This document shows, one piece after another, positions 23,061-64,000 of a stretch of DNA of 64,000 nt (positions are counted from its first letter, which is position 1; each line of letters opens with the position of its first letter). A program made the translations under genes and the position numbers. This DNA comes from an uncultured Gammaproteobacteria bacterium (lineage in GTDB: Bacteria; Patescibacteriota; Microgenomatia; Levybacterales; UBA12049): the NCBI GenBank assembly GCA_965230895.1, contig OZ246394.1:712627-776626 (forward strand). Reading direction: 5' to 3'. Below the pieces are notes generated by a model. The model worked only from the letters and a program-made list of their open reading frames with translations, had not been told where the DNA came from and did not search any database.

Positions 23061-23762
23061 CTAATTTTTTCTTTCCGCCTCTTCTCTTCTCCACGCAACT
23101 GCTTCTTCTCCACGCGCCCATAAAACCTTCTTATCAGCAGGTGTTAATTTAAACGCTGCTGAAAGTATAACATCATTTGTTTCTTCCCACTCCCCATCAG
23201 TATATACAAAATGTGGCATTTGTCCATTATACGTTTGGATCTCGCCATTTTCATGCAAGATCCGTACTGATTGTAACACTTTACTAACAGGCAAATATTT
23301 TGGAATATATTTTGCATTGGTAGAGATTGCTCCACCAACAGTTCCCGGCAAACCTAATTGATATTCAAGCCCAGCAAGTCCCTCCTCAATAGTAAATCGG
23401 ACGAGCTGATTCATGTTCACACCTGATTCTGCATAGACAAGTATTTCTTGTACCCCCATCTGGCTTTGTTTGATGGAACCCTTCATACTCGCTTTATCAA
23501 ACCGTCGACAGTTATTTTTAATAACGAGTCCAGGCAAATCTTTTCCAGATTCTATTCTAGCACCACTCCCAAGTATTCGAACAGGGATTTTAAAATTTTG
23601 TGCTGCTTTAATAATCGTTACAAGCTCATTAATCGTATCAATTTCAAGGTATAACTCCACGTTGATATCAGCTTTTGTGATGGTATGTGTTGCCAATGAT
23701 TCGTTTTGCTTTACCCGTTTTTCTCCAATTAATTCTACAATCTTCCGTATGCTATCTGTCAT
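23061..23762 (-). CDS. murB: UDP-N-acetylenolpyruvoylglucosamine reductase MurB, short form. The ORF track start at 23804 overlaps murC; the internal ATG at MTDSIRK is more likely.
   Basis: The FAD-binding region 'PVRILGSGARI' and 'GLAGLEYQLGLPGTVGGAISTNAKY' are MurB motifs. Confidence 0.7.
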   Translation of the reverse strand: MTDSIRKIVELIGEKRVKQNESLATHTITKADINVELYLEIDTINELVTIIKAAQNFKIPVRILGSGARIESGKDLPGLVIKNNCRRFDKASMKGSIKQSQMGVQEILVYAESGVNMNQLVRFTIEEGLAGLEYQLGLPGTVGGAISTNAKYIPKYLPVSKVLQSVRILHENGEIQTYNGQMPHFVYTDGEWEETNDVILSAAFKLTPADKKVLWARGEEAVAWRREEAERKN

Positions 23763-25173: not shown

Positions 25174-25886
25174 AATAAACTTATAACACTAATGAATAAA
25201 CTATTTCTATCGCCTCTCCTGTATGAATAAAAACGTTTATCATGCAGCGTGCAAATATCTGAGATAGCAATATTTTCTTCAAGTATACCTTCTGCAAGCA
25301 GGTTTTGCAGGGCAACATTGCGTAGATCTAAATAGTATTTTCCATCTTTTTCTTCATATATATTTTTATATGTAGGGAATGTCTGTTTAAATTCAGTAAT
25401 AATCTCCTCGCTTACTTCATAACAATCTCTTTCGATACTTGGCCCGATACCCACAATAATATCATTCGGGTTGGAATCAAATGTAGCTTCGAAAGCGGCA
25501 ATTGTCTTAGTCAAAATGCCCGCAGACAATCCCCGTCTTCCAGCGTGAACTGCTCCAATAGCCTGTTTTTCAGGATCATAGAAAAAGACAGGCAGACAAT
25601 CGGCAGTTTTTATTGCTAAAGGTAATCCTTTCTTATTCGTAATCATTCCATCAGTCTGAGGAATCACTAACTCTCTATCGTTTTCAATTATTGCGATGTT
25701 CGTTCCATGAACTTGTCGCATACTGATCGGCATCTTAGGGAAATTTTGATCTTTAGCAAATTTCAATAAGTTCGCAGAATGAACGTCCCCATTTTCTTTT
25801 TTCATTGATCCAAATGCTTGTGTGGAGATTGCGTGCGATATTGCTGTGTAATCTGAAAAAATATCCAATTTTAAAACAGTATTCAT
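25170..25886 (-). CDS. pgeF: PgeF/YfiH-family protein (DUF152 purine nucleoside phosphorylase / peptidoglycan editing factor)
   Basis: 'MRQVHGTNIAII', 'TADCLPVFFYD' and 'GAVHAGRRG' are the YfiH/LACC1-family motifs. Confidence 0.7.
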   Translation of the reverse strand: MNTVLKLDIFSDYTAISHAISTQAFGSMKKENGDVHSANLLKFAKDQNFPKMPISMRQVHGTNIAIIENDRELVIPQTDGMITNKKGLPLAIKTADCLPVFFYDPEKQAIGAVHAGRRGLSAGILTKTIAAFEATFDSNPNDIIVGIGPSIERDCYEVSEEIITEFKQTFPTYKNIYEEKDGKYYLDLRNVALQNLLAEGILEENIAISDICTLHDKRFYSYRRGDRNSLFISVISLL

Positions 25887-27130
25887 AAAAGCTTTCTCTC
25901 TTGTAAAGCAGTTTTTGCGGTTTCATTCTCATCCCAAGGTTCTTCACCGTTTCCGTAATTTATCGATTTTTCGTGACCTTTTCCGGTCATGATCACAACA
26001 TCACCTCGGCCTGCTATCTTAATAGCAAAATGAATTGCTTCTTTACGGTCTTTAATAATGAATACATATTTTTGTCCGCTTTTCAGGCCTCCACTTGAAG
26101 CAATCAATGTATGATCATGTACAATTTCAAAACGCTTATCGGTAATTCCTTTAAGAATTTCTGAATTAATATGGTCGATTGGCTCAGTTCTTGGATCTTC
26201 TGCTGTAACAACTATTACATCAGCATATCTTGATGATATCTTCCCCATTTCTGGCCTTTTGTATGTGTCTCTTTTTGCAGCTGCTCCAAAGACATGTATC
26301 AAACGATTCTTCGTAAGCTTTTTCACTTCCGGCAAAATCTCTGCAAAAGAATTTGGTGTATGGGCAAAATCATTAATTACCATGAAATCTTTTTTGTAAA
26401 GAATTTCTTGACGACCGGTTGGAGCTTTAAAGGTAGCAATTCCTTTTCGTATCAATTCTTCTGGAATATGTAATTGTTGCAAAGCAGTAATTGCAGCAAG
26501 ACAATTATATTTATTAAATTGTCCAAGCAATTTTGTCGTAAATTGAAATGTGTGAGGATTTACATCTGAATCCTTTTTCAATCCATATGTAATAATCTCT
26601 TCTTTACCTTTCAATTCTTTCTTCCGAATTTGCCAATATGAATGATCATCTTTATTCACTACTGCAACTTTTGCAGCACGGAGGAGTTTGGACTTCACAT
26701 GGACATAATTTTCATAGGTTTTATGATAATCCAAATGCTCTTTGGTCACATTGGTAATGACACCGACATCGAAATGAACTCCAGCAACACGATGCTGGTC
26801 TAAAGCGTGGGATGTCACTTCAAGAACAACATATTGCACGCCTTCACTTTTTGCTTTACGCAGATAGGATTGGAGAGCAAATCTTCCCGGAGTTGTTACA
26901 TGAAAACCGATATCACTAGCGTCACCGTTAATAATGGCGCCATTTGACGAAATTAAAGCAGCTTTATATCCGGCAGTAATTAAGCTGTGATAAATCAGAC
27001 TTGATGTCGTGGTTTTACCATCGGTTCCCGTTACACCTATAACCGTCATTCCACGTGCCGGGAAACGATACATTACATTGGCAATAATTGCTTGTCCTAA
27101 ATGATAAATGTTTTTAGTCTTTTGCCACAT
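25883..27130 (-). CDS. murE: Mur ligase, MurE-like (UDP-MurNAc-L-Ala-D-Glu--diamino acid ligase). It is short (415 aa) and appears to lack most of the N-terminal domain.
   Basis: 'VIGVTGTDGKTTT' is the P-loop. 'NVTKEHLDYHKTYENY' matches the MurE 'DHLDYHG' box. A C-terminal Mur ligase domain is present. Confidence 0.6.
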   Translation of the reverse strand: MWQKTKNIYHLGQAIIANVMYRFPARGMTVIGVTGTDGKTTTSSLIYHSLITAGYKAALISSNGAIINGDASDIGFHVTTPGRFALQSYLRKAKSEGVQYVVLEVTSHALDQHRVAGVHFDVGVITNVTKEHLDYHKTYENYVHVKSKLLRAAKVAVVNKDDHSYWQIRKKELKGKEEIITYGLKKDSDVNPHTFQFTTKLLGQFNKYNCLAAITALQQLHIPEELIRKGIATFKAPTGRQEILYKKDFMVINDFAHTPNSFAEILPEVKKLTKNRLIHVFGAAAKRDTYKRPEMGKISSRYADVIVVTAEDPRTEPIDHINSEILKGITDKRFEIVHDHTLIASSGGLKSGQKYVFIIKDRKEAIHFAIKIAGRGDVVIMTGKGHEKSINYGNGEEPWDENETAKTALQERKLL

Positions 27131-27131
27131 A

Positions 27132-27710
27132 TTATTTTAAGTAATGCCTCAGTAGCTCAAGAATTTTATCATAATATGTATAGTAAATATAACCTGTTAC
27201 AACTAAAAGAGCTGGGAATATAATGTACTTTTCTGTAAATGTTCCTGTAGTAACTCTGAGTGCTCGAACTGGAGGGATTCCAAAACTCATAGGTATCGGC
27301 AAAAGCCAAGGAACTCCTTCCTTCGTAAAAGTATCCATGACCAAATGAGAAACAAATCCAATCATAAACGCCCACCATACAATCTCTACATTAATATTGG
27401 GAATACTTGGCTGAAGAAATTTTAAGAAGAGATTGAAAAGTACACCAAACACGACTACCCCTAAAATTGAATGCGAAACGAATCGATGACCTCCAAGAAG
27501 TTTTCCAAAAAACTTTCCAAAGATATTCATAATTGGAAGATTTCTCCAAAAAGGTGCTGTAGACTGATCAATATCAGGCGCAATACCCCCAACCATGTTT
27601 GCAGCAAGAGCAACAATCGCAGTACCCATGGTAATCTCGGGTAAGGGGTGAGAAACAACAACGACAGAAAGTGCGGTAAATGCAGCCAAATCATGCGTTC
27701 TTCCTGTCAT
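27132..27710 (-). CDS. Membrane-bound metal-dependent hydrolase, YdjM/DUF457 family
   Basis: 'APDIDQ', 'GHRFVSHS' and 'SHLVMDTFTKEGVPWLLP' reproduce the conserved His/Asp pattern of YdjM-like proteins. Confidence 0.55.
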   Translation of the reverse strand: MTGRTHDLAAFTALSVVVVSHPLPEITMGTAIVALAANMVGGIAPDIDQSTAPFWRNLPIMNIFGKFFGKLLGGHRFVSHSILGVVVFGVLFNLFLKFLQPSIPNINVEIVWWAFMIGFVSHLVMDTFTKEGVPWLLPIPMSFGIPPVRALRVTTGTFTEKYIIFPALLVVTGYIYYTYYDKILELLRHYLK

Positions 27711-27782
27711 AATAACCAGTATAGCAAATTTTGATGAGCTATCCCAATCCTGATGAACTTGTCTTAGGGAGGTGAATGTGAG

Positions 27783-28136
27783 ATGCTTAAGCCGATTATG
27801 AAGCTGCTAAACAAAACGAGAGAGACTACATTGGCAGAACAGATTATTGAAGCGAAATCATTTCGTGATCAAACGCTTGGGCTTCTCGCGTACGAAACTC
27901 CTGTAGCAATGCTTCTCAAAAGTAGTTTTGGAATCCATACGTTGTTCATGAAATATCCGATTGATGTGTTGATTTTAGACAAAAATAACAGAGTAGCAGC
28001 GTTAAGGAAACGCATGCAGCCAAATACGTTCTTTGTCTGGAACCCTTTGCATCGGACCATAATCGAGCTTCCTGAAGGAACAATTGCTATGACAAAAACT
28101 GTTTTACAAGATGAGCTTTTATTTATCCAAGGGTAA
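27783..28136 (+). CDS. DUF192 (COG1430) family protein
   Basis: 'LGLLAYETP...FGIHTLFMKYPIDVLILDKNNRV' fits the DUF192 fold consensus. Confidence 0.5.
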   Translation: MLKPIMKLLNKTRETTLAEQIIEAKSFRDQTLGLLAYETPVAMLLKSSFGIHTLFMKYPIDVLILDKNNRVAALRKRMQPNTFFVWNPLHRTIIELPEGTIAMTKTVLQDELLFIQG

Positions 28137-28149
28137 GATAATCGCTAGC

Positions 28150-28180
28150 AAACAACATAAAATCTGATATAATCACTTGT
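28150..28180 (+). promoter_or_regulatory. -10 box (TGATATAAT) 11 nt upstream of the ATG at 28181. Candidate short-leader or leaderless promoter.
   Basis: TATAAT lies at 28164-28169. No SD sequence precedes the ATG. Confidence 0.3.
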
Positions 28181-28510
28181 ATGAAACCGCAAATAACCTA
28201 CGATGATTTCATAAAGTTAGATATCCGAGTTGGAACCGTAATCAATTGTGAAGAGAAAGAAGGTTCAGACAAACTCCTCCGATTAACAGTAGATTTTGGT
28301 GAACTTGGAACTCGAAATATCCTCTCTGGGATTAAGCAATGGTATAAGCCATCTAATTTGAAAGATAAGCAATTCGTTTTCGTTTTTAATCTTGCTCCAC
28401 GAAAAATGATGGGTGAAGAATCCCAAGGCATGATACTTGCTGCTGAAGGGAAAAAACCACAGCCACTGAAGCCAAAAGCTAAAGTGCCAGCTGGATCACC
28501 AATACTGTAA
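28181..28510 (+). CDS. tRNA-binding domain protein (CsaA / MetRS C-terminal / EMAP-II-like OB fold)
   Basis: 'DIRVGTVINCEEKEGSDKLLRLTVDFGE...ESQGMILAAEG' is the canonical tRNA-binding OB-fold motif. Confidence 0.7.
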   Translation: MKPQITYDDFIKLDIRVGTVINCEEKEGSDKLLRLTVDFGELGTRNILSGIKQWYKPSNLKDKQFVFVFNLAPRKMMGEESQGMILAAEGKKPQPLKPKAKVPAGSPIL

Positions 28511-28514
28511 ACCA

Positions 28515-29078
28515 ATGAATTATTTAGAGTTTGCCCTCACTGTAGGGAAACTAAAGTCATTGAAGCGCACGGGATGGGTACGAAGGAATGTGCCTGATCC
28601 AGAAAGTGTAGCAGCCCACTCATTTCGTACAGCAGTCCTCGCAATGACCCTTGCTCCCAAAGTCGGTGCAGATAGTAATAAATCAATGAAGATGGCATTA
28701 ATCCATGATATTGGCGAAGCAATCATAGGTGATGTTGTCGTAGCGTCTTGGGATGGCAAGCGATTGGATATGCCAAAGCTTGTTAAAAAGAATGTACAGG
28801 AGGTTGCTGCAATCCATGAAATATTTGCACTTATAAAAGATGTAGATTGTCCCGCACTGTTTGAAGAGTTTCAAAAGAAAAAGAGTCTGGAATCAAAATT
28901 TGTAACGGAAATTGATAAGCTTGATATGGCAATCCAAGCATATGAATACGAGAAAGAATATGGAATTGATTTACAAGCATTTTTTAATAATGTCCAGGCA
29001 ATATTACGATTTAAAGCAGTCAAAGAATTGTTTGATGAAGTGGAAAAGAAGCGTAAAGCCCTCGATATTCAACGGTAA
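28515..29078 (+). CDS. HD-domain phosphohydrolase (YfbR/HDDC2-like 5'-deoxynucleotidase family)
   Basis: The H...HD motif is present: 'SVAAHSFRTAVLA' followed by 'ALIHDIGEAIIGD'. Confidence 0.65.
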   Translation: MNYLEFALTVGKLKSLKRTGWVRRNVPDPESVAAHSFRTAVLAMTLAPKVGADSNKSMKMALIHDIGEAIIGDVVVASWDGKRLDMPKLVKKNVQEVAAIHEIFALIKDVDCPALFEEFQKKKSLESKFVTEIDKLDMAIQAYEYEKEYGIDLQAFFNNVQAILRFKAVKELFDEVEKKRKALDIQR

Positions 29079-30776
29079 TTATTTTTCCTCAGTAATCGGT
29101 TCTGTCGGTGGAATGCCATAATATGTCAAAATATTCTTTGCTACATTAAAGAAGATCGGTGCTGCAGTTTCAGAGCCATAGATTGAAGTTGAAGGTCGAT
29201 CGACAACAACAAGCATCAAGAATTTGGGATCATCAGCTGGCGCAAAACCGACAAACGATGCAATAGTTTTATTTGGATCATAATGTCCCTCAACCGGAAT
29301 CTGAGCTGTACCTGTTTTCCCAGCAATTCGGTATCCTTTTGGTGCTGCCCACTTTGATTCCCCATCTTCAACAGCCTTTACCATCATTTCAGTCATAACA
29401 CGAGCACTTTTAGCAGAAATTGGTTGACTAAGCTGTTTTGGTGGGATAGGAATGACGTTGCCATCTGCTGTTTGCACACTAGCAACAACATGCGGCTCCA
29501 TCCGTTTCCCGTCATTGGCAATTGCTGAGAACGCAGTAAGCAAATTAATCGGAGTTAAAGTAAGACCTTGTCCAAACGTTGCAGTTGCTTGATCTATCTC
29601 GTACCAACTATCTTTCTCACGTAAACTTGGATAGACTTCGCCTTGCAGGTCAATTCCTGTAGCTTGCCCGACACCAAATTTTTCCATGTACGCAAGCATT
29701 CTATCCAATCCAAGAAGCCGTCCCGTGTAAACCATACCCGTGTTATCGGAATGGACAATAACGTCCGTCATCGTACTATTTGCAGTATACTCATCATTCC
29801 ATGTCTTAATTTTATATCCACTAATTTCAACTGGAGCAGCACAAATCGGACATTGCGTATCAGGTTGGAGAAGACCCGCATCCAGTGCAGAAGCCATAAT
29901 AAGCGGTTTAAACGTTGAACCAGGTTCATATGCAAATGATATAAATGGATTTGAATACAACTTATCCGAAAAATCCTGATACGATCGAGGATCATATGTC
30001 GGATATGAAGACATCGCTAAAATACCACCAGTTTTAGGATCCATGACAGCTGCCATGCCACTTTGTGCGCCATACGCTTGAATACCTTTTTTCAGTTCTT
30101 GATCAAGCATGAATTGAATACGACGATCAATGTGAAGAATGAGATCACGTCCATCAACTTTCTCTGTGCTATCGTTCATATTTGCAAGAATTGGTTGTCC
30201 ACGTGCATCTTTAACGACAATCGCTAAGCCATCTTTCCCTCGAAGTTGTCTATCGTAATAGCCTTCCAGACCAAAATAGCCTTTGTCTTTACCTGCATCA
30301 TCTTTCCCAACAAACCCCAATAAATTAGCAGCTGTAGATGCTTCCGGATAAAAACGAATCGTTTGTTCCTGGAAGCCAACCCCTGGTAACTCTTTCTTTT
30401 CGATTTGCTCCTTCAGTGAGTGCTCTACAGGAGATTTCAGTGGAACCCAAAAACGATCCAATGAAAGTTGTGCACTTACCGTAGCCTTATCAATATCAAG
30501 AAATTTTCCAAGTATTTCAGACTCTTTTTCCTTATCTTTTATCTCTTTCGGATTTGCCCAGACAAGATAGGAAAGCTTATTGGCTGCAATAGCATAATTG
30601 TCTGAAGTTTTGATTTCACCTCGTGTTGCTGTGAGAGTTATCTGCGCATCGTATTGCTCTTGTCCAAGGGAAGCAAGTTCTTGAGCCCGTACAACTTGCC
30701 AATAAAATAGGCGGGAGATAATTAAAGCAAAGAGAAAAAGAAATAAAAGTAATGTAATTCGATATCGCCAAGTCAT
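29079..30776 (-). CDS. ftsI: Class B penicillin-binding protein (FtsI/PBP2-type transpeptidase)
   Basis: It has an N-terminal TM helix. The SxxK motif is 'GSTFKP', the SxN motif 'HSDN', and the KTG motif 'KTGTAQ'. Confidence 0.85.
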   Translation of the reverse strand: MTWRYRITLLLFLFLFALIISRLFYWQVVRAQELASLGQEQYDAQITLTATRGEIKTSDNYAIAANKLSYLVWANPKEIKDKEKESEILGKFLDIDKATVSAQLSLDRFWVPLKSPVEHSLKEQIEKKELPGVGFQEQTIRFYPEASTAANLLGFVGKDDAGKDKGYFGLEGYYDRQLRGKDGLAIVVKDARGQPILANMNDSTEKVDGRDLILHIDRRIQFMLDQELKKGIQAYGAQSGMAAVMDPKTGGILAMSSYPTYDPRSYQDFSDKLYSNPFISFAYEPGSTFKPLIMASALDAGLLQPDTQCPICAAPVEISGYKIKTWNDEYTANSTMTDVIVHSDNTGMVYTGRLLGLDRMLAYMEKFGVGQATGIDLQGEVYPSLREKDSWYEIDQATATFGQGLTLTPINLLTAFSAIANDGKRMEPHVVASVQTADGNVIPIPPKQLSQPISAKSARVMTEMMVKAVEDGESKWAAPKGYRIAGKTGTAQIPVEGHYDPNKTIASFVGFAPADDPKFLMLVVVDRPSTSIYGSETAAPIFFNVAKNILTYYGIPPTEPITEEK

Positions 30777-30830
30777 AGTCTAGTAGTAATAAGTGTATCA
30801 AAGCAGAAACGTTACAGGAAGTCCTTGTAA

Positions 30831-31112
30831 TTATCGCTTAGCCAAAGGTAACGGAGCTGCCATATTAAGATGTGATTTAGCTGGAGCAAATCCCATGGAT
30901 TTAGCCTTGGCATTTATTGTCGTGAATGACGCTGCTTGAAGATACTGTTCTTTCAGCAATTCATTCTCCTTTTTTACTTCCTCAGCTTGATTCTGTAAAT
31001 CAACCAATGCAACACCAGTTGTGGAGATACTGTTTACAAAGTAAATACGGACTACTGACAGGACTACGACGATAAATCCTAGTCCTCCTAATAATAGTAT
31101 TGGTTTTTTCAT
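30831..31112 (-). CDS. ftsL: FtsL-like septum-formation protein (TM plus coiled coil)
   Basis: A 93 aa protein with an N-terminal TM helix and the coiled coil 'QAEEVKKENELLKEQYLQ'. It sits in the canonical position between rsmH and ftsI. Confidence 0.5.
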   Translation of the reverse strand: MKKPILLLGGLGFIVVVLSVVRIYFVNSISTTGVALVDLQNQAEEVKKENELLKEQYLQAASFTTINAKAKSMGFAPAKSHLNMAAPLPLAKR

Positions 31113-39150: not shown

Positions 39151-39819
39151 TTAGGACGCACCTTTGCCAGATACCATCGCCCATGGAGTCTTAAGAATAA
39201 TATAGATATCAAGTAGAATTGACTTCTTTCTTGCGTAATCAGCATCCATTTGGATACGTTTATCAAACTTTAATTCGCTTCTTCCAGAAACCTGCCAAAA
39301 ACCTGTAATACCTGGTTTAACAGACAGCACTTCTTTTACAAGCTCTTTTGTTTGTGGGTATGCTTTCTGTTGTTTCTCAAGCTCTTCAGGATAATATGGA
39401 CGCGGCCCGACCAAACTCATCTCGCCTCTCAAAACATTAAAAAATTGTGGCACTTCATCGAGAGAATGTTTGCGTATAAACTTACCAACATGTGTAATAC
39501 GAGGATCATTTTTAATTTTATAATTTCCACCTTTTTGCTGTTCCTCATATGCTTTCTTGAACTTAGGATCAGTTTTTAATAAATAATATGCATTTACGAT
39601 CATTGAGCGGAACTTATACGGATAGAAAAATTTATTGTTTTTTCCAACTCTTCTCGGGGTATCAGCTAATATCGGCCCTTTTGATTCTAATTTGATGGCC
39701 AGAGCAACAATAATCATAATTGGAGAAAATAAAAGAAGGAGAAGGAGAGAAGAAATAATATCAATAGTTCTCTTTATAAATTCGTAGACCAAGCTTTGTG
39801 TGTGCTTTTTAGAAGACAT
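39151..39819 (-). CDS. Polyprenyl-phosphate sugar-1-phosphate transferase (bacterial sugar transferase, PglC/WbaP C-terminal type)
   Basis: An N-terminal TM helix is followed by the conserved C-terminal block '[14 protein letters not shown]...[28 protein letters not shown]'. Confidence 0.8.
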
Positions 39820-39821
39820 AG

Positions 39822-40907
39822 CTATGCCAGATGTTCGTAGTCAGTCCCACTAAGGTTTTGTACGAACTTCTTAATCTTAGGGACAGAGTCTTTTGGACAA
39901 ATCAAGATAACATCTTCCATACTTACGACGACAAGACCCTGTAAATCAATTCCTACAATAAGCTGCTTTGTTTCATTATGGATAATCGAATCCACACAGT
40001 CTTCAAGAAGAACTTTTCCTTTTGTTACATTTGCGTCAATCTCATCACTTAATGCTTCTTTCAGTGCTTCCCATGCACCAATATCACTCCAACCAATATC
40101 CGCTGAAATAACCATTCCAGCTTTTGGATCCATCTTTTCCAAAATAGCGTTATCAAATGAAATCTTCTCAAGCTTTGGATATACTTCTGCCAATACTTTT
40201 TCGTATTCATCAGTACCGTATGCATCTTGTATCTTCTTTAGATCCTTAAATAACTCAGGTGAAAATTCTTCAAATAACTTCCAAAGGAATCGTGGAGTTG
40301 TCGCGAAATAACCAAGATTCCAGGAATGTCGGTTATCTTTTGCCCATTCTTTTGCAGTTTCAAGCGCTGGTCTATATTGAAATCCTGTGAATTCATGAAT
40401 TGGAAATCCTTCAACATTTTCTGTTTCTTTTCCAAATTCAATATATCCAAGGTTTTGATTTGCAAATCGAGGCTTCTGACCGATGAACACAATCTTTTCA
40501 GGATCCTTCAAGACAAGTTTTTCTGCAACTCTAAGAATTTTCCTAAATTCAGCTTCTTTCTTAACAAGATGATCACTTCCCCAAAGAAGAACAATTGGCT
40601 CATCAGGATTTGTTTTAACAAATTGAGAAATTACCAAACCAACAGCAGGACCAACGTCTCGCATTTCAGGTTCAACAATAACATTCTTTTCAGGTAGTTC
40701 TGGCAATTGTTCGTGGATGTGATTTGCGTATTGTGTACCTGTGGAGATAAATACATCTTCCCAAGCAAACTCAGGGAATAATTTATGGACAGCTATTTGG
40801 AGCATGGATCGATCGGCAATGATTTTTCCAAACTGCTTTGGGGCATTTTTACGAGAAAGGGGCCATAATCTACTTCCGACTCCACCTGCAAAAAGAACTA
40901 TTTTCAT
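39822..40907 (-). CDS. manC: Mannose-1-phosphate guanylyltransferase (GDP-mannose pyrophosphorylase)
   Basis: 'MKIVLFAGGVGSRLWPLSRKNAPKQF' matches the ManC/CpsB N-terminus. A nucleotidyl transferase fold is present. Confidence 0.7.
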   Translation of the reverse strand: MKIVLFAGGVGSRLWPLSRKNAPKQFGKIIADRSMLQIAVHKLFPEFAWEDVFISTGTQYANHIHEQLPELPEKNVIVEPEMRDVGPAVGLVISQFVKTNPDEPIVLLWGSDHLVKKEAEFRKILRVAEKLVLKDPEKIVFIGQKPRFANQNLGYIEFGKETENVEGFPIHEFTGFQYRPALETAKEWAKDNRHSWNLGYFATTPRFLWKLFEEFSPELFKDLKKIQDAYGTDEYEKVLAEVYPKLEKISFDNAILEKMDPKAGMVISADIGWSDIGAWEALKEALSDEIDANVTKGKVLLEDCVDSIIHNETKQLIVGIDLQGLVVVSMEDVILICPKDSVPKIKKFVQNLSGTDYEHLA

Positions 40908-43446: not shown

Positions 43447-44640
43447 TTACTTACGAAGAACATTTGTATATGTGCTTTCTAAACCACGAGTTATATATTT
43501 CCATGTATAATTCTTTTCTATAAACGTTCGTCCTTTACCGCTAATTTTTTCATAAAGTTCTTTACTGTGAAGTACTTCATACGTTTTTTCTGCAAGTTGT
43601 TTAGCATCATTTCCTACTAATAATTCTTGTTCGTCTTCTGCATGGAGAGCATTGGCACTTAAAGACATTGTTATTACCGGTGTTCCGCAACTCATGGATT
43701 CAAGTATTTTATAGCTCGTTCCGCCTCCCACTCGAATTGGTGCAAGTAAAACAGCTGCTTCTTGAAAGATATCTGGAGTGGGTTTTGCTGACGTCGCTTC
43801 ATCAAATAAAACACGTGGATCATCAGTTAAATTCCGAATTGCATTGGGAATATTTCTTGCAACAAACCAAAGTTTTACATTATCTGAAACTTTATTCTTT
43901 AACAGTGGCCAAACATCTTGAATGATATATGCGGCGCTATCTCTATTTTGGATCCATTTGAAGTCTCCAATAAATAAGATCTTTTTCTCATCTTTCACTT
44001 TTTTCTGCAAGGGAATAAAGAAGAACTGATCTACATTAACACCATTGGCAGCGATATCTGCATTAAAACCAAATGTTTTAAGAATCGAGGCATCGTCTGA
44101 AGAAACCGTAACAACTTTTGAAGCGCGCTTCCATGATGACTCTTCTTCGCGTTTGATCTTCGCAATATCAATTCCCAGTAAGGGCTTAACAGGAAGAGGC
44201 GCCTGATTTTTAAATCGTTCATACACTTTATATTCGATATTATGCTCAATCAAAACAATTGGAATTTTGGTTTCTGGGACATTTTGCATAACATAAAATG
44301 TTTCAACATGAATCAAGTCAAACTGTTCATTCTGTAATAGCGTTTCAATTTTCTCACGCATTTCCGGAAGCTCATGACCAGTAGAAAGAAATGATTTTGA
44401 GGAAATTCCAGCTTTTGTAATATTTGATAAACTCCATTGTTTCTTTCGTGGCACAAGGATAACTTTTTTACAGATTTTTTCTACTTGCTTGATATCATTG
44501 TCTGTCTCCGTTGGACGACGTTCGCAGACCAGCGTAATTTCATGACGAGAAGAAAGCTCTTTAATAATATTATAGAGGCGTACTTGCCCACCAGAAAAAA
44601 GTGGATACGGTAAATATGAGGAAACAAGTAATATCTTCAT
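43447..44640 (-). CDS. Glycosyltransferase family 4 (GT-B)
   Basis: 'MKILLVSSYLPYPLFSGGQVRLYNI' is the N-terminus. The C-terminal 'GGGTSYKILESMSCGTPVIT' motif is GT4-like. Confidence 0.7.
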   Translation of the reverse strand: MKILLVSSYLPYPLFSGGQVRLYNIIKELSSRHEITLVCERRPTETDNDIKQVEKICKKVILVPRKKQWSLSNITKAGISSKSFLSTGHELPEMREKIETLLQNEQFDLIHVETFYVMQNVPETKIPIVLIEHNIEYKVYERFKNQAPLPVKPLLGIDIAKIKREEESSWKRASKVVTVSSDDASILKTFGFNADIAANGVNVDQFFFIPLQKKVKDEKKILFIGDFKWIQNRDSAAYIIQDVWPLLKNKVSDNVKLWFVARNIPNAIRNLTDDPRVLFDEATSAKPTPDIFQEAAVLLAPIRVGGGTSYKILESMSCGTPVITMSLSANALHAEDEQELLVGNDAKQLAEKTYEVLHSKELYEKISGKGRTFIEKNYTWKYITRGLESTYTNVLRK

Positions 44641-46100
44641 TATTTCTTATGTAAATCAAAAATTGCGTACTGTTCTGTAAAAGCAACTACTTTGTATTCT
44701 TCCTCCCATTGTTCTTTATCTTGCTGTGATGGATTAACCAGAACGAGATAATCTGCGCCTTTTTGGATAAGAATTGGCATTGGATCCTGGAAACTTGCCC
44801 AACCTCTTCGATCCATTTGGTAAAGCAATGAAGTATCTCCATTATAGTTTGCAACAATAAGAGCGTCTTTCGGCGTTAATTGTTGTACAGCTTTGCCAGC
44901 TGCAATAATTGAGCGGTTATTAATATTGAAGTATTCTTTTATAATGTTCCAACTCATATAAAAGCTTCCGATAATGAGCAGGACAACGAGAATTTTCCCA
45001 ATAGGAAATTTTTTGAAACTCCATTTCATTAAGAAATAACTTCCAATTGCCATAAATATTGCAACCGCTGGAATCGTTGGTATTTGATAATAATCATGTT
45101 GGACATTTCCTGTTGCTACAATAGAAACATATAATACTGGACCAATAAGAAATGATAAAAAGAATTTCCATTCTTTAAGAAGTTTTATACGCAATGCACC
45201 AAACCCCAAGAGTACTATCCCAAAATATCCGCTTATCAAAACTGTCAGTCGCTCATAAAATATCCATCTAAAAAATGCCGGTCGAAAACGAATACCATTT
45301 CCGTTCAATAACCATATGTTGGCAGGGATTCCTTCAGGGAATTGGGATATCCATGTCCTCCAAGCCAAAAGCGGTGCTACGGAAAGAATTGCGTATAGCC
45401 AAAGATGCCATTGTAGAAAGGTTTTCCAGCCAAAATGCTTAAATGCCAAATATATAATTGGAATTATGAAGAAAATTGCATGAGGCTTTAAGAGAAAGGC
45501 TACTGCTGTAAAAAATAAAGCTAATACAAAATTATTTATGATCTTCCTCTTCTCATGTTTTTGCTTAGTGAGTTCTTGAATCCATGTATCAAAGAAATAT
45601 ATACCTCCTAAGTACGCCATTACCATCGTCATATCAGGAAGAATTGTTCTCCCATAATAGATATTGAATGGGATGAACATATAAAAGAATGTACTTAGTA
45701 ACCCGAGTTCTTTATTGCTATGTCTCGAAACCAGAAGGTAAAGAAAAATACCAGCGCCAAGAGAGGCTGTTATACTAATAAGTCTTCCCCATTGCTCAAT
45801 TGTGAAGAAGCCAAAAATCATGAAGAGGCTTGCCTGAAGCGCATTATAAATTGGGAATTCAACAAAGAAGTATCCATTGGGATTATCCATTCCGGATTGG
45901 ACATTGGAGATATTAACCATCTTAGGGTAAAGCATGTTGATACCTTCATTGGCAAAAATCCTTGAAACGGAGGCGGTTTCTGATTGTCTCCAACTATGCC
46001 AATCAGCAATGGAATTATCAAAACCATAAAGTCGGACGATAAACCCACCAAAAAGAATACAAGCAAGAATAAGCAGTGTGTGGTTCCTCAAAAATTTCAT
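44640..46100 (-). CDS. Polytopic membrane glycosyltransferase, GT-C fold-like (ArnT/PMT/COG1807-like)
   Basis: A 486 aa protein with about 11 TM helices. The first extracytoplasmic loop carries the acidic/aromatic motif 'FDNSIADWHSWRQSE', typical of GT-C enzymes that use polyprenyl-P-sugars. The stop overlaps the start of the upstream GT4. Confidence 0.45.
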   Translation of the reverse strand: MKFLRNHTLLILACILFGGFIVRLYGFDNSIADWHSWRQSETASVSRIFANEGINMLYPKMVNISNVQSGMDNPNGYFFVEFPIYNALQASLFMIFGFFTIEQWGRLISITASLGAGIFLYLLVSRHSNKELGLLSTFFYMFIPFNIYYGRTILPDMTMVMAYLGGIYFFDTWIQELTKQKHEKRKIINNFVLALFFTAVAFLLKPHAIFFIIPIIYLAFKHFGWKTFLQWHLWLYAILSVAPLLAWRTWISQFPEGIPANIWLLNGNGIRFRPAFFRWIFYERLTVLISGYFGIVLLGFGALRIKLLKEWKFFLSFLIGPVLYVSIVATGNVQHDYYQIPTIPAVAIFMAIGSYFLMKWSFKKFPIGKILVVLLIIGSFYMSWNIIKEYFNINNRSIIAAGKAVQQLTPKDALIVANYNGDTSLLYQMDRRGWASFQDPMPILIQKGADYLVLVNPSQQDKEQWEEEYKVVAFTEQYAIFDLHKK

Positions 46101-49183: not shown

Positions 49184-49777
49184 TTAGCGAAACCACGCAG
49201 CACGTCCTAACTTATAATGCAGATCCTTTGATTTGCGCTCTCCTATCACCTTTGCAGGGATACCACCAACTATAGCATATGGCTCAACAGATTTGGTTAC
49301 GACAGCACCAGCACCGACAACACTACCTTTACCCAAAGTTACTCCAGGAAGAATAATTGCCCGTGGGCCGATAAACACGTAATCATCAATCACAACACAT
49401 TCAGAAATAGCATGGAAATCATCGCTATGGATATCGTGTTGGCTATTGTAGATCATAACTTCTGAAGCAATATCTACATGATCACCAATAACAAGCTTCT
49501 CACGTCCATCCAAAACAGCAAATTCACCGATAATTGTATCTTTACCGATAACAATATTGGCAGGATTATAAAACCGAGCACCTACATGAAGTGTTGATCC
49601 ATCACGAATAGTCATACCTGCAAGTCGATAAAAGAATCTTCGAATATGATGGGACGGTAGATGCCCAACGACATGAAGCACCCAAACGACGAATTCACGA
49701 AAAACGGTATTGGATCTATTCTGCGCCTTCCGTTTAAAGTCTTTTGAAAACATATTTCTATTTAAACTATTTGCCAT
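49184..49777 (-). CDS. Hexapeptide-repeat (LbH) O-acetyltransferase, paralog of the gene at 452..991. The likely start is the internal ATG at MANSLNR, which avoids overlap with the upstream GT4.
   Basis: 'IVIGKDTIIGEFAVLDG' and 'IILPGVTLGKGSVVGAGAVVTKSVEPYAIVGGIPAKVI' align block-for-block with the 452..991 product. Confidence 0.7.
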   Translation of the reverse strand: MANSLNRNMFSKDFKRKAQNRSNTVFREFVVWVLHVVGHLPSHHIRRFFYRLAGMTIRDGSTLHVGARFYNPANIVIGKDTIIGEFAVLDGREKLVIGDHVDIASEVMIYNSQHDIHSDDFHAISECVVIDDYVFIGPRAIILPGVTLGKGSVVGAGAVVTKSVEPYAIVGGIPAKVIGERKSKDLHYKLGRAAWFR

Positions 49778-49778
49778 A

Positions 49779-50927
49779 TTATTTTGCTGCAACGTCGACA
49801 AGTACTTTGAGTGTCTCCTTTGCTGTTTTTTCCCAATTAAACTTCGTTGCCTGTTTTTTTCCTTTTTCACTCAGCTCTTTTCGCAGATTTTTATCATTTA
49901 CTACTTTCACGAGCTTATCTGAGATATCAGAGACATCTTCAGGATCTATATAAACTGCAGCATCTCCTCCTGCTTCCGGCATACTACTTACATTGCTTGT
50001 AATAACTGGCGTGCCCTGCTTCATGGCTTCAACTACAGGCAAACCAAAGCCTTCATAAAGGCTTGGTAAGACATAACAAAGAGTATGTTTATACAGCATA
50101 TGCAATTCGTCATCATTGATACCTTCAAGAAATGCAACTTTATTTTCAACTCCAAACTTCCTTGGTGCATTAAGTATATCTTCATACAACCAGCCTTTCT
50201 TCCCAACAACAACGAGCTGTAAATCTCTGTATGCTTCATCTAATTTTTTGCTTTCCAATGCTTGTGCAAATGCTTCTATAAGGCGGGAAATATTTTTTCG
50301 AGGCTGCAAAGTACCCACAAATAAAACGTAGTTATTACTGAGGTTATATTTAGCTTTTAACTCGTTCATAGCATAAACATGAGGCTGAAGTGAAACAGAT
50401 TGTTTTATCCCAGGATAAATTGTTTTGACCTTTCCCTCAGGTACTTTGTACGTTTTAATTATATCATTTCTACTTGAGTTACTTATAGTCAATACGACCT
50501 TTGCCTTCTCCACAGAATACTTCGTCCAATTACGAAGTTGATACATATCAGCCTTATTAAATAACTCTGGAAAGCGCAAATATGCTAGATCCATTATAGA
50601 AACTACTGTCGGAATAGGCGAAAAACGTGGAGCATAATGGGTTGGGCTAAAGAAAACATCTGGTTTTGACTTACTCAAAAATAAATTAAGGGGCAAACCA
50701 AATTGTGTCCAAAACTTTCCAGGACCGACAATTTTATATTGCCAATTTACGTTTTCCTTTGGAAGTGTCTTTAAAGGTGGTTGTTTAAGATAAATAACAA
50801 ATTTTACCTCAAGTGATTTATTCGATTCAGCAAATTTTGCAAAATAATATAATAACCAATAAGCGTACTCACTTATTCCTACCCTTTTTGTAACATTGGC
50901 TTCATTGCCATCGATTCCAATAATCAT
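49779..50927 (-). CDS. Glycosyltransferase family 4 (GT-B)
   Basis: 'MIIGIDGNEAN' is the N-terminus. The C-terminal 'PSLYEGFGLPVVEAMKQGTPVITS' motif is GT4-like. Confidence 0.7.
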   Translation of the reverse strand: MIIGIDGNEANVTKRVGISEYAYWLLYYFAKFAESNKSLEVKFVIYLKQPPLKTLPKENVNWQYKIVGPGKFWTQFGLPLNLFLSKSKPDVFFSPTHYAPRFSPIPTVVSIMDLAYLRFPELFNKADMYQLRNWTKYSVEKAKVVLTISNSSRNDIIKTYKVPEGKVKTIYPGIKQSVSLQPHVYAMNELKAKYNLSNNYVLFVGTLQPRKNISRLIEAFAQALESKKLDEAYRDLQLVVVGKKGWLYEDILNAPRKFGVENKVAFLEGINDDELHMLYKHTLCYVLPSLYEGFGLPVVEAMKQGTPVITSNVSSMPEAGGDAAVYIDPEDVSDISDKLVKVVNDKNLRKELSEKGKKQATKFNWEKTAKETLKVLVDVAAK

Positions 50928-58184: not shown

Positions 58185-60328
58185 AGAGTATTTTTATTCT
58201 TTAATCTCCAAAAATACATTATAAAGTAAATAGCAAGACATATCAAAACAATATTTCTAATTAACGAGCTAATTTGTATATAGATCGATGGCGTAAATAG
58301 AACCGTAGCTTTTAAGGAGCTATTTGCATCAATATTTTTAATTTTCCAACCATTCGCATAATCATTGATTGTTATATGTTCAGCTTCTAAAGGAGCAATA
58401 CTCGGAATTGCTAGAGTATTAAATGTCATTTGGCTTCCATTGTATATTTGCCACTTATCAGAGAATGGCTGATCAAAGACTATAACTGTTTCTGGGTTGA
58501 TATTTGGAACAAAAATTTCATATTGATATTGAGAAATCTTTTTTGTATAGACGTTACCGTTTTCTATTGTAAAAATATTTTTAGGCGGACGGCTTACTAC
58601 TTCTTTTATCTGATATACAGAAATGTCTCTCGATTTGTTATTGGAAGTAACATAATCACTATCTATTGGTTGAGTGTACCTTCCTACAAACTTTAATCGT
58701 TCATTATTAAGAAGCGTCTTATTAATTTCTAGACTATTAGGCAGTAAATTATTATAAATAATGATTGTGTCTACATTATACTTTACAAGCAGATCTATTG
58801 TGTCTTGACTTGATATATCTTTAATCTTTTTTTGATATTCAATTGATTCTTTGGAGAACGGACTTGCTCCTGTTACGATTTTCTTATTGTGAACTATTTG
58901 TCCAAGTAATTGATAGGTACGCGGATTTCCGTAATCAACAAAATCTAACTCAACAGGATATGGTGCAATAACTTTAATTGAGGAATTTTCTTTTATTGGT
59001 TCATAAAGTTTTGCTATCTTGGAAAAATCAGAATACATCTTCCAACTTGCATCATGATTTAACCCAATCGCTACTACAAAAAATGCTAATAACAAACTTA
59101 TCAATATCTTCTTCTTGCCTGCAATCTGAGTTATTAATACCCCTATCATTAATCCTTGGAATAGATAGACCACATGGTACATTCTTGCAACACTTCTAAA
59201 CATTCCAAAGTAATGAAAATACAACTGGTTCAGCCAATAGAATAATGGCGTATATGCTGATAATATAACAGCTATCAAAGCACAGAAGAATAAAGTTTTA
59301 TATACCCTATTTTTAAATTGGAAGAATAAACCAATAATTAGGATTATTGGAATCAGTGCACCAAAGTAAGAAAACGATTTATTAAATAAGTAAATGATGA
59401 TGCTTGTTTCAGGAAGACTAAAATAAAAGCTTAATGGTAATAACTCATTTCTATAATTAGTGACCCGACCCGATTGGACTAAGTATTGATGGTCAAAAAG
59501 TAATATATTGGAAATTATGAAATTTAAGTTAAGTAAAACGAGCAAGACAAGAAGCGCTCCATAATAGACTCCAATAGTTCTTATCTTTGATAAAATACTC
59601 TCCTTTTGATAAAAAAGAACAATAACTATAGATATGAGACCACAGAAAAATGCGTAATAAGCATCTGCATTAAAGGTAATACTAAATACAAATGCAGAAA
59701 GAACTAAAGAGACTATGCTTTTCCTATTAAGGAAGTAAAACAGACTTAAAAAGTATAACGGTATAAACTCAATGTGGTTAATGGACATTTGCCCTCTCCC
59801 TGCCAAAACGAAGCTAAAAGAAAAAGCATAAATAAGCCCGCAAACGAAACTGCCCATATAACTTCTTGTGAGGTAAAAACATAAACATGCAGCACTTATT
59901 GCAGCTAATGGGTAGACCAGTAACGAAGAAATATTAGTTATTAAAATAAGATTTTGCCATGAGAAACCAAACATTTTTAGCAGGGCAATGTGTACTGAAT
60001 AAATCAATGTTTCAAAGGGTTTAAATGTAATATCAAATCCAAATGGAAAACCAATGTAATCAGTAATTTCATAAAGCTCCTTTTTCTGTTCAAGAAAAAC
60101 AAGGAACCATTGATACCAAAGTCCTCCATCAGTATCAATATCTGGCATTGCATAACGAGTATCTAGGAAGGGCAAACGATGGTGGAATATTAGGAGAGTA
60201 AGAATAAGATAGATAAGAAATCCTATTATCGATACACTAACAAATTGCTGGACTTTATTTTGTCCATCTATAACGTTAGTAATCTTTTTCAAAAAACTAC
60301 TTTTCTGTTGATATCGATTTTGATTCAT
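58181..60328 (-). CDS. Large (715 aa) polytopic membrane protein, tandem paralog of 56013..58184
   Basis: It carries 'AMPDIDTDGGLWYQWFL' and has the same domain order. The C-terminal exported domain is homologous ('ISVYQIKEVV...YEIFVPN...FDQPFSDKWQIYNG'). Confidence 0.55.
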   Translation of the reverse strand: MNQNRYQQKSSFLKKITNVIDGQNKVQQFVSVSIIGFLIYLILTLLIFHHRLPFLDTRYAMPDIDTDGGLWYQWFLVFLEQKKELYEITDYIGFPFGFDITFKPFETLIYSVHIALLKMFGFSWQNLILITNISSLLVYPLAAISAACLCFYLTRSYMGSFVCGLIYAFSFSFVLAGRGQMSINHIEFIPLYFLSLFYFLNRKSIVSLVLSAFVFSITFNADAYYAFFCGLISIVIVLFYQKESILSKIRTIGVYYGALLVLLVLLNLNFIISNILLFDHQYLVQSGRVTNYRNELLPLSFYFSLPETSIIIYLFNKSFSYFGALIPIILIIGLFFQFKNRVYKTLFFCALIAVILSAYTPLFYWLNQLYFHYFGMFRSVARMYHVVYLFQGLMIGVLITQIAGKKKILISLLLAFFVVAIGLNHDASWKMYSDFSKIAKLYEPIKENSSIKVIAPYPVELDFVDYGNPRTYQLLGQIVHNKKIVTGASPFSKESIEYQKKIKDISSQDTIDLLVKYNVDTIIIYNNLLPNSLEINKTLLNNERLKFVGRYTQPIDSDYVTSNNKSRDISVYQIKEVVSRPPKNIFTIENGNVYTKKISQYQYEIFVPNINPETVIVFDQPFSDKWQIYNGSQMTFNTLAIPSIAPLEAEHITINDYANGWKIKNIDANSSLKATVLFTPSIYIQISSLIRNIVLICLAIYFIMYFWRLKNKNTL

Positions 60329-61370
60329 CGTAACTTCTTAAATCGGGTTTATAACCAAATGCATGCATGACAGTATGATAAATGATAAGACTTGCAGTAA
60401 AAATGCACAGTGGGACATGGATTAAATAACGGATATCTTTTCTGGTAACACAAAGTTTTATTGCATCAAAGAAACAAACAATTAGGGTGAATACATATGG
60501 AATAAATAAATATTTCTTATATTGCAAAGCATTTGAAGAATACTGTTCTCTCCCAGTAAACCCTGAAGCTCCCATTTCAGATACATGATAAATATTATTC
60601 TTTACTCTCCAGCGAATCTTGTTTAAATATTTTCCTAATGTATCTGAGGAATAATGAAAAAGTGCATCATTTTTGGTTAAAGCAATGTCTGCACCTTTAG
60701 AATTCATTAAGTAAAAAAAATGGGGAATTAATCTTATATCGTTTTTCGTCTCAGTAAAATGCTTTTTCATATAATTACCGTCAAACATGCTTCCTCCAGC
60801 AACTAATTCAATAATTGGCATCTGCTGGACATTGGTAAGATTAAAAATTGTATAGTCTTTTTTATTAGCGATGAAACCATATCGTTTTATCATCTGCTTA
60901 AGAAAGAAGCGCGCATCTTTCGACAAATTATAAATATATGCAGAGAACGGATCACCAAATTCATTTATATAGTTATTTATGAATGGATATCCTTTAGGAT
61001 TTTTATATCCACTTCCTATTACCGCTCTAACATTCTCATTTTCCTTAAACACTTGAATCTTCTTCTCCAAACTTCTTGGATTCTCAATTACTTCATCATG
61101 GTCTAAATAAAGTAAGTATGTACCTTGTGCTTGGGTATAACCCAAGAACTTCGCATTTACAGGATCTGTCTTAGGATTATTAATAACGATACATTTATAT
61201 TTTTCGGCGATTTTAAATGTACCATCAGTGGAACCACCATCAATCAATAAAATTTGTAATTTATTTTGAGGGAATGTTTGCTTCTTTATAGAATCTAATA
61301 CTTTTGGAAGTATATGTTCGGAGTTAAATGTAGCAATAATAATAGAAAGTTCAATTGTGCTTTTTGACAT
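60297..61370 (-). CDS. Glycosyltransferase family 2 with C-terminal TM helices (polyprenyl-phosphate sugar synthase-like: DPM1/GtrB/CsbB architecture)
   Basis: 'LSIIIATFNSEHILPKVLDSIKKQTFPQNKLQILLIDGGSTDGT' is the GT2 core. Hydrophobic C-terminal segments follow ('YLFIPYVFTLIVCFF', 'VPLCIFTASLIIY'). Confidence 0.6.
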   Translation of the reverse strand: MSKSTIELSIIIATFNSEHILPKVLDSIKKQTFPQNKLQILLIDGGSTDGTFKIAEKYKCIVINNPKTDPVNAKFLGYTQAQGTYLLYLDHDEVIENPRSLEKKIQVFKENENVRAVIGSGYKNPKGYPFINNYINEFGDPFSAYIYNLSKDARFFLKQMIKRYGFIANKKDYTIFNLTNVQQMPIIELVAGGSMFDGNYMKKHFTETKNDIRLIPHFFYLMNSKGADIALTKNDALFHYSSDTLGKYLNKIRWRVKNNIYHVSEMGASGFTGREQYSSNALQYKKYLFIPYVFTLIVCFFDAIKLCVTRKDIRYLIHVPLCIFTASLIIYHTVMHAFGYKPDLRSYDESKSISTEK

Positions 61371-63244: not shown

Positions 63245-64000
63245 TTATTTAGTTACCGTATTCACAATAATTTCACTTGGACGCTGTTTGGGATTAATCG
63301 GTTTTTTTGCATATTTTTTATAATTCTTAAAAAAATCTTTTATTACATCAAAATTATTCTTACTAAGAACTACATTATGATTTAAGCCCTCAATACGCTC
63401 AGTTGCTGAACGAAGAATAAGACATGGTTTACCAAAATAATATGATTCTTCCTGATTACTTCCTCCATCCGTTACAATAAATTGACATCCATCAATTACT
63501 TTCATAAATTCCACGTAACTCAATCTTTCGCTAAGAATAATATTTTTATGTGCTTTAAGCTTTTGCATTAATCCTTTCTTTTCTAAGACAAGTATCGTAG
63601 GAGCGTGCATTACAAAAACACATTTCATATTCTTCGCGTGTGCAATAACATTATCAATCAACAATTCAACGAGTTGATCATTAAACAGGTTCTCCTGACG
63701 ATGCATAATAAAAAGGAAATATTTTTCTTTCTTAATACGATCCAACAGTTTTGATTGAACTTTTGTATTTATGACCATATTTAGACTATCCAATAAGGTA
63801 TTCTGGCCCGTATTAACTTTTAACCCGCTCTTATTCTTAAGATTATTAACAGCCCATTCATTAGGACATAGGTGAATATCTGTTAATTGAGAAGTAATAA
63901 CCCTGTCAATCTCTTCTGGAAAAGGATGGAAATAGTTAAATGATCGCAAACCAGCCTCAACATGAGCTATCTTTAAACCATACCGCTTCGCGATAAGTGC
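63245..64000 (-). CDS. wecB: UDP-N-acetylglucosamine 2-epimerase (WecB/MnaA family), partial. The N-terminus lies beyond the window end, and the ORF-track start at 63949 is internal.
   Basis: Manual translation upstream of 63949 continues in frame as '...ALIAKRYGLKIAHVEAGLRSFNYFHPFPEEIDR'. The HVEAGLRS/PFPEE motifs and the C-terminal 'FIVTDGGSNQEESYYFGKPCLILRSATER' define non-hydrolysing 2-epimerases. Confidence 0.7.
   Translation of the reverse strand, partial: ALIAKRYGLKIAHVEAGLRSFNYFHPFPEEIDRVITSQLTDIHLCPNEWAVNNLKNKSGLKVNTGQNTLLDSLNMVINTKVQSKLLDRIKKEKYFLFIMHRQENLFNDQLVELLIDNVIAHAKNMKCVFVMHAPTILVLEKKGLMQKLKAHKNIILSERLSYVEFMKVIDGCQFIVTDGGSNQEESYYFGKPCLILRSATERIEGLNHNVVLSKNNFDVIKDFFKNYKKYAKKPINPKQRPSEIIVNTVTK

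Follow-up and report, generated by a model that had tools for sequence, protein, structure and literature searches.

An uncharacterised GT2 subfamily beside amino-sugar genes and GT-C proteins in a cell-surface glycan operon of an uncultured bacterium

1. Introduction

Polyprenyl-phosphate glycosyltransferases (Pren-P GTs) of the GtrB, ArnC and DPMS type form sugars linked to a polyprenyl phosphate (C55-P-sugars), and are tetramers carrying a C-terminal beta-hairpin. A gene for a GT-A enzyme next to a gene for a GT-C enzyme, as in csbB–yfhO and arnC–arnT, is the classic signature of pairs that work through such C55-P-sugars. Here, we examine a 357-residue family 2 glycosyltransferase (hereafter the GT2) encoded in 64,000 nucleotides (nt) of contig OZ246394.1 from an uncultured bacterium (GenBank assembly GCA_965230895.1; this whole 64-kb stretch is called the window), for which an original prediction had proposed a ‘DPM1/GtrB/CsbB-like’ enzyme serving a polyprenyl-phosphate-mannose route. 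The locus is a real, ordinary and uncharacterised cell-surface glycan operon, and the GT2 is a member of a distinct, uncharacterised GT2 subfamily which, judged by its sequence, is not a lipid-phosphate sugar synthase of the DPM1/GtrB type.

The GT2 shares several traits with the described Pren-P GTs (GtrB, ArnC, DPMS/DPM1, CsbB and PgfS), namely a GT-A domain with a DxD site, amphipathic helices, two weakly hydrophobic C-terminal helices, a short conserved cytoplasmic tail and an adjacent GT-C gene. At the C-terminus, where the described enzymes carry a beta-hairpin, the sequence of the GT2 shows this tail (L-K/R-S-Y-D-E-S-K). The locus also recalls the multi-component transmembrane glycosylation systems CsbB/GtcA/YfhO, GacI/J/K/L and CsdAB (PMC8035078), as genes for a membrane-associated GT-A enzyme and for GT-C-fold proteins stand in one operon and their pairing is statistically enriched. 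It differs from these systems in three respects: the GT-A enzyme appears to fall outside the family that activates C55-P-sugars, the window contains no GtrA-type flippase, and none of the named families accommodates the GT-C proteins.

2. A distinct GT2 subfamily

The open reading frame (ORF) of the GT2 is a genuine gene, far above what chance would produce. Residues 9–142 match Pfam family PF00535 (Glycos_transf_2, E = 1.1e-20), and 393 homologues were retrieved from a collection of 5.8 billion proteins, more than 100 of them at 50–70% identity over the full length. The family comprises approximately 477 clusters (50% identity, E < 1e-30), and its members carry, among the database homologues, no functional name beyond ‘family 2 glycosyltransferase’. 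Conservation is tight across an alignment of 36 family sequences, with D44, D90, D92, E93, D140, E188, H239, K251, R255, D302 and R310 invariant, and the motifs NEFGDPFS, HYSSDT, K-I-x-W-R-V-K-N-N and the C-terminal L-K-S-Y-D-E-S-K are specific to the family.

The Pfam match, the GT-A core of the AlphaFold2 (AF2) model (pLDDT 92.4, pTM 0.90) and the invariant D90, D92 and E93 all confirm that the N-terminal domain is of the GT-A type and contains a DxD metal site. Beyond this core, the model places helices at residues 245–261, 280–294, 297–310 and 313–337. Two helices of the protein are amphipathic, at 131–147 (hydrophobic moment, muH, 1.55) and 245–261 (muH 1.72). Pren-P GTs typically have two amphipathic juxtamembrane helices, one within the glycosyltransferase domain and one before the first transmembrane helix (PMC4728340); the positions in the GT2 appear comparable.

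The two C-terminal helices announced as transmembrane in the original prediction do exist (residues approx. 286–309 and 313–337), but they are only marginally hydrophobic and may not span the membrane. Their Kyte–Doolittle values are 1.99 and 1.76 in the window protein and average 1.61 and 1.56 in the family, versus 2.0–2.9 for canonical Pren-P GTs in related loci. Moreover, one Asp within these helices is invariant and one His nearly so, and an invariant Arg occupies the short turn that connects them. Membrane association of the GT2 is nevertheless likely.

3. Comparison with polyprenyl-phosphate glycosyltransferases

The sequence DADLQ(D/N/H) is common to the three solved Pren-P GTs (GtrB, ArnC and DPMS), with its second Asp and its Gln serving as metal ligands (PMC12690121). 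Across the 36-sequence alignment, the GT2 family has L-D-(H/S)-D-E-(V/I) instead, and a regular-expression scan of the ORFs in the window found no DADLQ-type enzyme at all.

When all PDB sequences were compared with the family profile, the highest scores fell to GT2s that act on glycans or polymers, with matches to TarS (66.5 bits), 6P61 (63.6), K4CP (59.4), RmlT (48.1), TarP (47.3), a PglI-type enzyme (43.9) and WrtF (41.8), while DPMS, ArnC and GtrB reached only 32.8, 24.1 and 17.8 bits, respectively, and these last three matches ended inside the first 91–113 profile positions. Searches against NCBIfam likewise gave N-terminal matches only, of at most 49 bits (the best to EpsD) and none to ArnC. 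As a positive control, the DADLQ-bearing GT2s of three related loci (L007, L053 and L061; such loci are cited by number below) matched ArnC with 136–172 bits and PgfS with 145–313 bits, over their full length. The nearest relatives of the GT2, by sequence and by structure, are not Pren-P GTs, and the proposed DPM1/GtrB/CsbB-like identity finds no support. Short GT2s that follow GT-C genes in L025 and L029, with a DADMQ sequence, were also considered as Pren-P GTs and rejected, NCBIfam assigning them to generic GT2s.

All profile and phmmer matches of the GT2 to solved GT2s end within the first ~130 residues. In contrast to GT2s acting on glycans or polymers (TarS, TarP, RmlT, WrtF, PglI-type enzymes, SpsA), its C-terminal 230 residues, which include conserved motifs and the hydrophobic hairpin, are specific to the family, and it lacks the trimerisation or acceptor domains known from TarS, TarP and WrtF.

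4. Operon structure and GT-C partners

From approximately position 34.9 kb to the end of the window, all genes lie on the minus strand and are separated by gaps or overlaps of a few bases (table 1). The order of transcription is WecB-like Epimerase_2, WecD-like GNAT, WecE, the GT2, the 715-aa and 723-aa proteins, a GT4, a 371-aa membrane protein, the 407-aa, 277-aa and 70-aa proteins, and further GT4 genes. Hence the GT2 is transcribed upstream of the tandem paralogs, and not directly downstream of them as first proposed. The end of WecE is separated from the start of the GT2 by 8 nt, and the stop of the GT2 and the start of the 715-aa gene share 32 nt. The priming phosphoglycosyl transferase, GT4 genes and Wzy_C protein of the same island provide a lipid-linked glycan pathway.

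The GT-C-like character noticed in the tandem paralogs is upheld: both have a GT-C fold, at 8–12% sequence identity to known GT-C enzymes (PMT, STT3/AglB/PglB, AftA/AftD and ArnT). Their mutual alignment extends over 709 residues, and the start of the second overlaps the stop of the first by 4 nt. In the first, the sequence M-P-D-I-D-T-D-G-G-L-W-Y-Q-W is conserved after the first transmembrane helix, and an extracytoplasmic C-terminal domain is followed by a C-terminal anchor helix. Neither paralog has a Pfam or NCBIfam match at threshold, or a sequence match in the PDB; PF10131 matches proteins of this type weakly, in 6 of 35 members. On sequence grounds, we place both outside every named GT-C family.

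A third GT-C gene, of AftD-like type, is split. The 407-aa and 277-aa ORFs, which overlap by 17 nt, correspond to the two halves of a single 661-aa protein (L007:16843-18828), and relatives match PF11847 (GT-C_AftD). The same split is present in three independent assemblies (L001–L003), and may reflect either gene decay or an enzyme that truly consists of two parts.

Gene for gene, the sister operon L007 is syntenic with the window. In it, a canonical DADLQD Pren-P GT (L007:18810-19772, 320 aa, 172 bits with the ArnC model; L034:3737-4810 was also compared) separates the AftD-like GT-C from the homologue of the 70-aa protein; this enzyme is cleanly absent from the window at the 51720/51723 junction, where the flanking ORFs overlap. 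The lineage hence serves its GT-C enzymes with ordinary Pren-P GTs, and the GT2 appears to have another task.

This distribution extends beyond the sister operon. We gathered 55 loci encoding the GT2 family by scanning one genome per species; according to their record titles, they come from Patescibacteria lineages, Bdellovibrionota, Clostridia, Planctomycetota and others. Canonical Pren-P GTs occur within 10 kb of the GT2 family in approximately 11 of the 55, and are immediately adjacent in L053, L054, L059 and L061. This coexistence, together with that in L007, suggests non-redundant roles for the two enzymes. In L053, L059 (both Planctomycetota) and L061 (Clostridium), i.e. in two unrelated phyla, the GT2-family gene stands in an uninterrupted row with the genes of a canonical PgfS/ArnC-like Pren-P GT and of an Epimerase_2; the L054 sequence (Planctomycetota) is too short to show an epimerase. 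The gene downstream of the GT2 family encodes a Wzx-type flippase in the Clostridia loci and a soluble sugar-nucleotide enzyme in the Bdellovibrionota loci, both of which are typical of repeat-unit assembly clusters.

The 70-aa protein had been put forward as a possible GtrA-like flippase. It has two hydrophobic segments, a sub-threshold match to DUF2809 and no match to GtrA in Pfam, even at E ≤ 5, and a hydrophobicity scan of the window found no small ORF with at least three hydrophobic segments, so that neither this protein nor any other small candidate in the window fits the suggestion. In both L007 and L034, a homologue of the 70-aa protein comes after a canonical Pren-P GT, so this protein may be an accessory of that enzyme rather than a partner of the GT2. 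A Polysacc_synt (Wzx-type) gene lies approximately 6 kb past the window end, as seen in L001.

5. Amino-sugar partners

In the wec cluster of Escherichia coli, a dedicated transferase adds Fuc4NAc to a lipid-linked intermediate of enterobacterial common antigen. The genes immediately upstream of the GT2 resemble this branch, as WecB-like, WecD-like and WecE genes are contiguous and the WecE product exceeds its equivalog cutoffs (NF008687: 618 bits, cutoff 375; TIGR02379: 615 bits, cutoff 435). The resemblance is partial, however. The best NCBIfam match of the GNAT, to the dTDP-4-amino-4,6-dideoxy-D-galactose acyltransferase family NF008212, covers the full length at 102 bits but stays below the cutoff of 219, and a full-length copy of the WecB-like protein (in L001) scores 192 bits against TIGR00236 (wecB), for a cutoff of 210. 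Likewise, the transferase is the GT2 and not a homologue of WecF (GT56), and neither RmlA nor RmlB, which supply dTDP-4-keto-6-deoxyglucose, was recognised in the window. An ambiguous short-chain dehydrogenase/reductase (SDR) is present in L001.

The same kinds of enzyme accompany the GT2 family elsewhere. Epimerase_2 is its most constant neighbour, found within 10 kb in approximately 45 of the 55 loci and as the nearest upstream gene in approximately 14; nine loci encode a high-scoring WecE, and a much larger number encode other DegT aminotransferases and GNATs. Some of these partners are even fused to the GT2, in a GNAT–GT2–Epimerase_2 protein of 957 aa (P0175) and in an SDR epimerase/dehydratase–GT2 protein of 689 aa (P0260). 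ManC had no match in any of the 55 loci. From the Epimerase_2, WecE and GNAT neighbours, the fusions and this absence of ManC, we infer that the donor of the GT2 is most likely an N-acetylated amino sugar and not mannose, namely a 4-acetamido-4,6-dideoxyhexose and/or a 2-epimerised N-acetylhexosamine (HexNAc).

In L004 (a Polynucleobacter-type contig), a DegT aminotransferase gene, a GT2-family gene, a gene for a 517-aa protein without Pfam match and a UbiA prenyltransferase gene with a faint HAD signal follow one another, an order that recalls three-component pentofuranose systems (PMC11127046).

6. Proposed role and alternatives

The role that we tentatively favour, at somewhat under an even chance, is the addition of an N-acetyl amino sugar to a lipid-linked glycan by a GT2 located at the membrane interface, with the GT-C proteins acting on this glycan after flipping. 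This reading is preferred because the evidence from the protein (motif, profile, fold and control) fits a glycan acceptor, and the genomic context fits a coupling to GT-C proteins. The GT2 would sit at the cytoplasmic face of the membrane, held by its basic amphipathic helix (residues 245–261) and its conserved, weakly hydrophobic helical hairpin. As an inverting, metal-dependent GT-A enzyme using D90-x-D92-E93, it would take the N-acetylated amino sugar that the neighbouring enzymes produce, either a 4-acetamido-4,6-dideoxyhexose (Fuc4NAc/Qui4NAc type), a 2-epimerised HexNAc or both, and transfer it to a polyprenyl-linked glycan intermediate, and not to bare polyprenyl phosphate. Once the product is flipped, the GT-C paralogs would act on the glycan outside the membrane, by transferring it, polymerising it or adding further decorations.

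Several observations weigh against this role. In 15 of 52 loci, the GT2-family gene is directly followed by one for a polytopic protein of 550 aa or more, versus 27 of 772 for the other genes of these loci (odds ratio 11, p = 4e-9, for loci that are not phylogenetically independent), and the polytopic proteins, which include the 715-aa type, the 407/277-aa type and matches to Pfam GT-C_AftD, represent at least three GT-C subfamilies. Furthermore, the GT2 resembles GtrB and ArnC in overall layout, as its GT-A domain contains an amphipathic helix, and a basic amphipathic helix precedes two hydrophobic helices and a conserved cytoplasmic tail; the window lacks a canonical Pren-P GT despite its five or six GT-C-type genes. 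The GT-A/GT-C pairing highlighted in the original prediction is real, lies within one operon and is recurrent, but it involves a GT2 devoid of DADLQ.

These same observations support the strongest alternative, a non-canonical Pren-P GT that would charge C55-P with the amino sugar, the product then being flipped and its sugar transferred by the 715/723-aa GT-C proteins to an extracytoplasmic acceptor. The excess of GT-C-like downstream neighbours over the 3.5% background, distributed among the P715 and P407/AftD types and others, the recurrence of Epimerase_2–GT2–GT-C modules among related loci, and the 32-nt overlap between the GT2 stop and the GT-C start all point the same way, as does the resemblance of the GT-C model to the lipid-monophosphate users Pmt4, AftD, AftA and ArnT. 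However, canonical Pren-P GTs coexist with the GT2 family in ~11 loci (directly adjacent in four), and the downstream flippase of the Clostridia and soluble enzyme of the Bdellovibrionota count against such a scheme, which we consider possible but unlikely. What persists of the suggested route through ‘other lipid-linked monosaccharides’ is this alternative, with an amino sugar taking the place of mannose. Its extension to the whole subfamily is equally doubtful: the GT2s would form a second Pren-P GT lineage of independent evolutionary origin, built on a TarS/SpsA-like D-x-D-E site and a conserved helical hairpin, and the C55-P that they load with an N-acetylated amino sugar would serve previously unclassified GT-C families of Patescibacteria-type bacteria.

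Considerably less probable is an elongation role, in which a canonical Pren-P GT would make a lipid-monophosphate sugar and the GT2 would extend it, on the model of archaeal Agl-type assembly on a monophosphate carrier, to give a C55-P-disaccharide for transfer by a GT-C enzyme. The canonical Pren-P GT that this requires is missing from the window, we know of no bacterial precedent, and what speaks for this role comes from gene context only.

Matches to hyaluronan synthase raised the idea of a minimal processive synthase of the hyaluronan or cellulose-synthase type, whose homopolymer would be exported with the neighbouring polytopic proteins. The GT2 does share with PcManGT and hyaluronan synthase (a ‘minimal cellulose-synthase-like fold’) a GT-A domain followed by interface and membrane helices, and gives with them the longest structural alignments (238–280 residues). 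Unlike these enzymes, it has only two marginally hydrophobic helices and no channel, the Arg of QxxRW is not conserved, and the neighbouring proteins, with their conserved Asp motif, look like catalytic GT-C enzymes rather than channel subunits, which makes a processive synthase very improbable.

Finally, a DPM1/Ppm1-like polyprenyl-phosphate mannose synthase, supplied with GDP-mannose by ManC and serving GT-C mannosyltransferases, is the least credible role of all: although a ManC-like gene does belong to the island, as had been stated, and GT-C proteins, including a PMT_2 member, are present, ManC is located 19.4 kb and more than 12 genes away from the GT2, beside a Bac_transf priming enzyme and four GT4 genes that use GDP-sugars directly, nothing ties the GT2 to ManC or to mannose, DPMS is only a distant relative, DADLQ is absent from the GT2 family, and the conserved, sometimes fused partners of the GT2 are a WecB-like 2-epimerase, WecE and a WecD-like acetyltransferase. 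We rejected ManC as the source of the donor because of its distance and its absence from the conserved context.

7. Other features of the window

Table 1. Features of the 64-kb window discussed in the text, in order of transcription for the operon, followed by the remaining features.
Feature	Position	Strand	Remarks
WecB-like Epimerase_2	63245..64000 (5' end beyond window)	-	PF02350, E = 7e-35; whole gene 368 aa in L001
WecD-like GNAT N-acetyltransferase, 236 aa	62533..63243	-	PF00583, E = 6e-15
WecE-type dTDP-4-amino-4,6-dideoxyhexose aminotransferase, 380 aa	61379..62521	-	NF008687, TIGR02379
GT2 under study, 357 aa	60297..61370	-	ATG-to-stop ORF; PF00535; GT-A domain
GT-C-fold paralog 1, 715 aa	58181..60328	-	polytopic N-terminal domain, conserved motif
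GT-C-fold paralog 2, 723 aa	56013..58184	-	40% identity to paralog 1, same motif
GT4 glycosyltransferase, 385 aa	54875..56032	-	PF00534, E = 9e-22
Membrane protein, 371 aa	53763..54878	-	no Pfam match
N-terminal (membrane) half of split AftD-like GT-C, 407 aa	52537..53760	-	aligns with residues 44-391 of L007:16843-18828
C-terminal half (external domain and anchor) of split GT-C, 277 aa	51720..52553	-	aligns with residues 415-634 of L007:16843-18828
Membrane protein, 70 aa	51511..51723	-	two hydrophobic segments
N-terminal half of a GT4, 180 aa	50930..51472	-	
Full-length GT4	49779..50927	-	
Hexapeptide acetyltransferase	49184..49870	-	listed from GTG
Polytopic protein, 1012 aa	46097..49135	-	Wzy_C (O-antigen ligase/polymerase) domain at 238-444
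PMT_2 family member	44640..46100		
ManC-like nucleotidyltransferase	39822..40907	-	
Bac_transf priming enzyme	39151..39819		adjoins ManC
Division/cell-wall cluster	5900..31000		
Short GT2	2909..3691		no DADLQ motif
Short GT2	2106..2864		no DADLQ motif

The 385-aa GT4 is syntenic with GT-C genes in L007, L008, L009 and L028, and the 371-aa protein is always found beside it in sister loci (L007, L013, L019, L022 and L047). The latter protein, without any Pfam match even at E ≤ 5, is composed of an N-terminal anchor, an external domain and five C-terminal hydrophobic segments. Further along, the 180-aa ORF corresponds only to the N-terminal half of a GT4 and precedes a full-length GT4; because the same arrangement exists in L007, this half-gene is probably not a recent pseudogene. 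The hexapeptide acetyltransferase ORF overlaps the upstream GT4 by 92 nt and opens with a long basic stretch, and its true start is probably an internal Met. In the 1012-aa protein, the C-terminus forms a second large membrane domain, outside known families. At the opposite side of the window, the division and cell-wall cluster encodes FtsZ, FtsA, MurG, two FtsW/RodA paralogs, MraY, MurA, Mur ligases and a penicillin-binding protein, along with ParB, isoleucyl-tRNA synthetase, a type IV pilin-like gene and signal peptidase I.

8. Implications

If the favoured role is correct, this locus would add one more surface-glycan operon, from an uncultured small-genome bacterium that is probably Patescibacteria-like, and its use would mainly be for annotation: a GT2 subfamily would be set apart from the superficially similar GtrB/DPM1 family and given an amino-sugar donor, and two unannotated proteins of some 700 aa would gain a GT-C fold. 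If, on the other hand, the GT2 were a non-canonical Pren-P GT, GT2 enzymes would have evolved lipid-phosphate sugar activation on two occasions, and the way in which GT-A/GT-C pairs are predicted from sequence would change.

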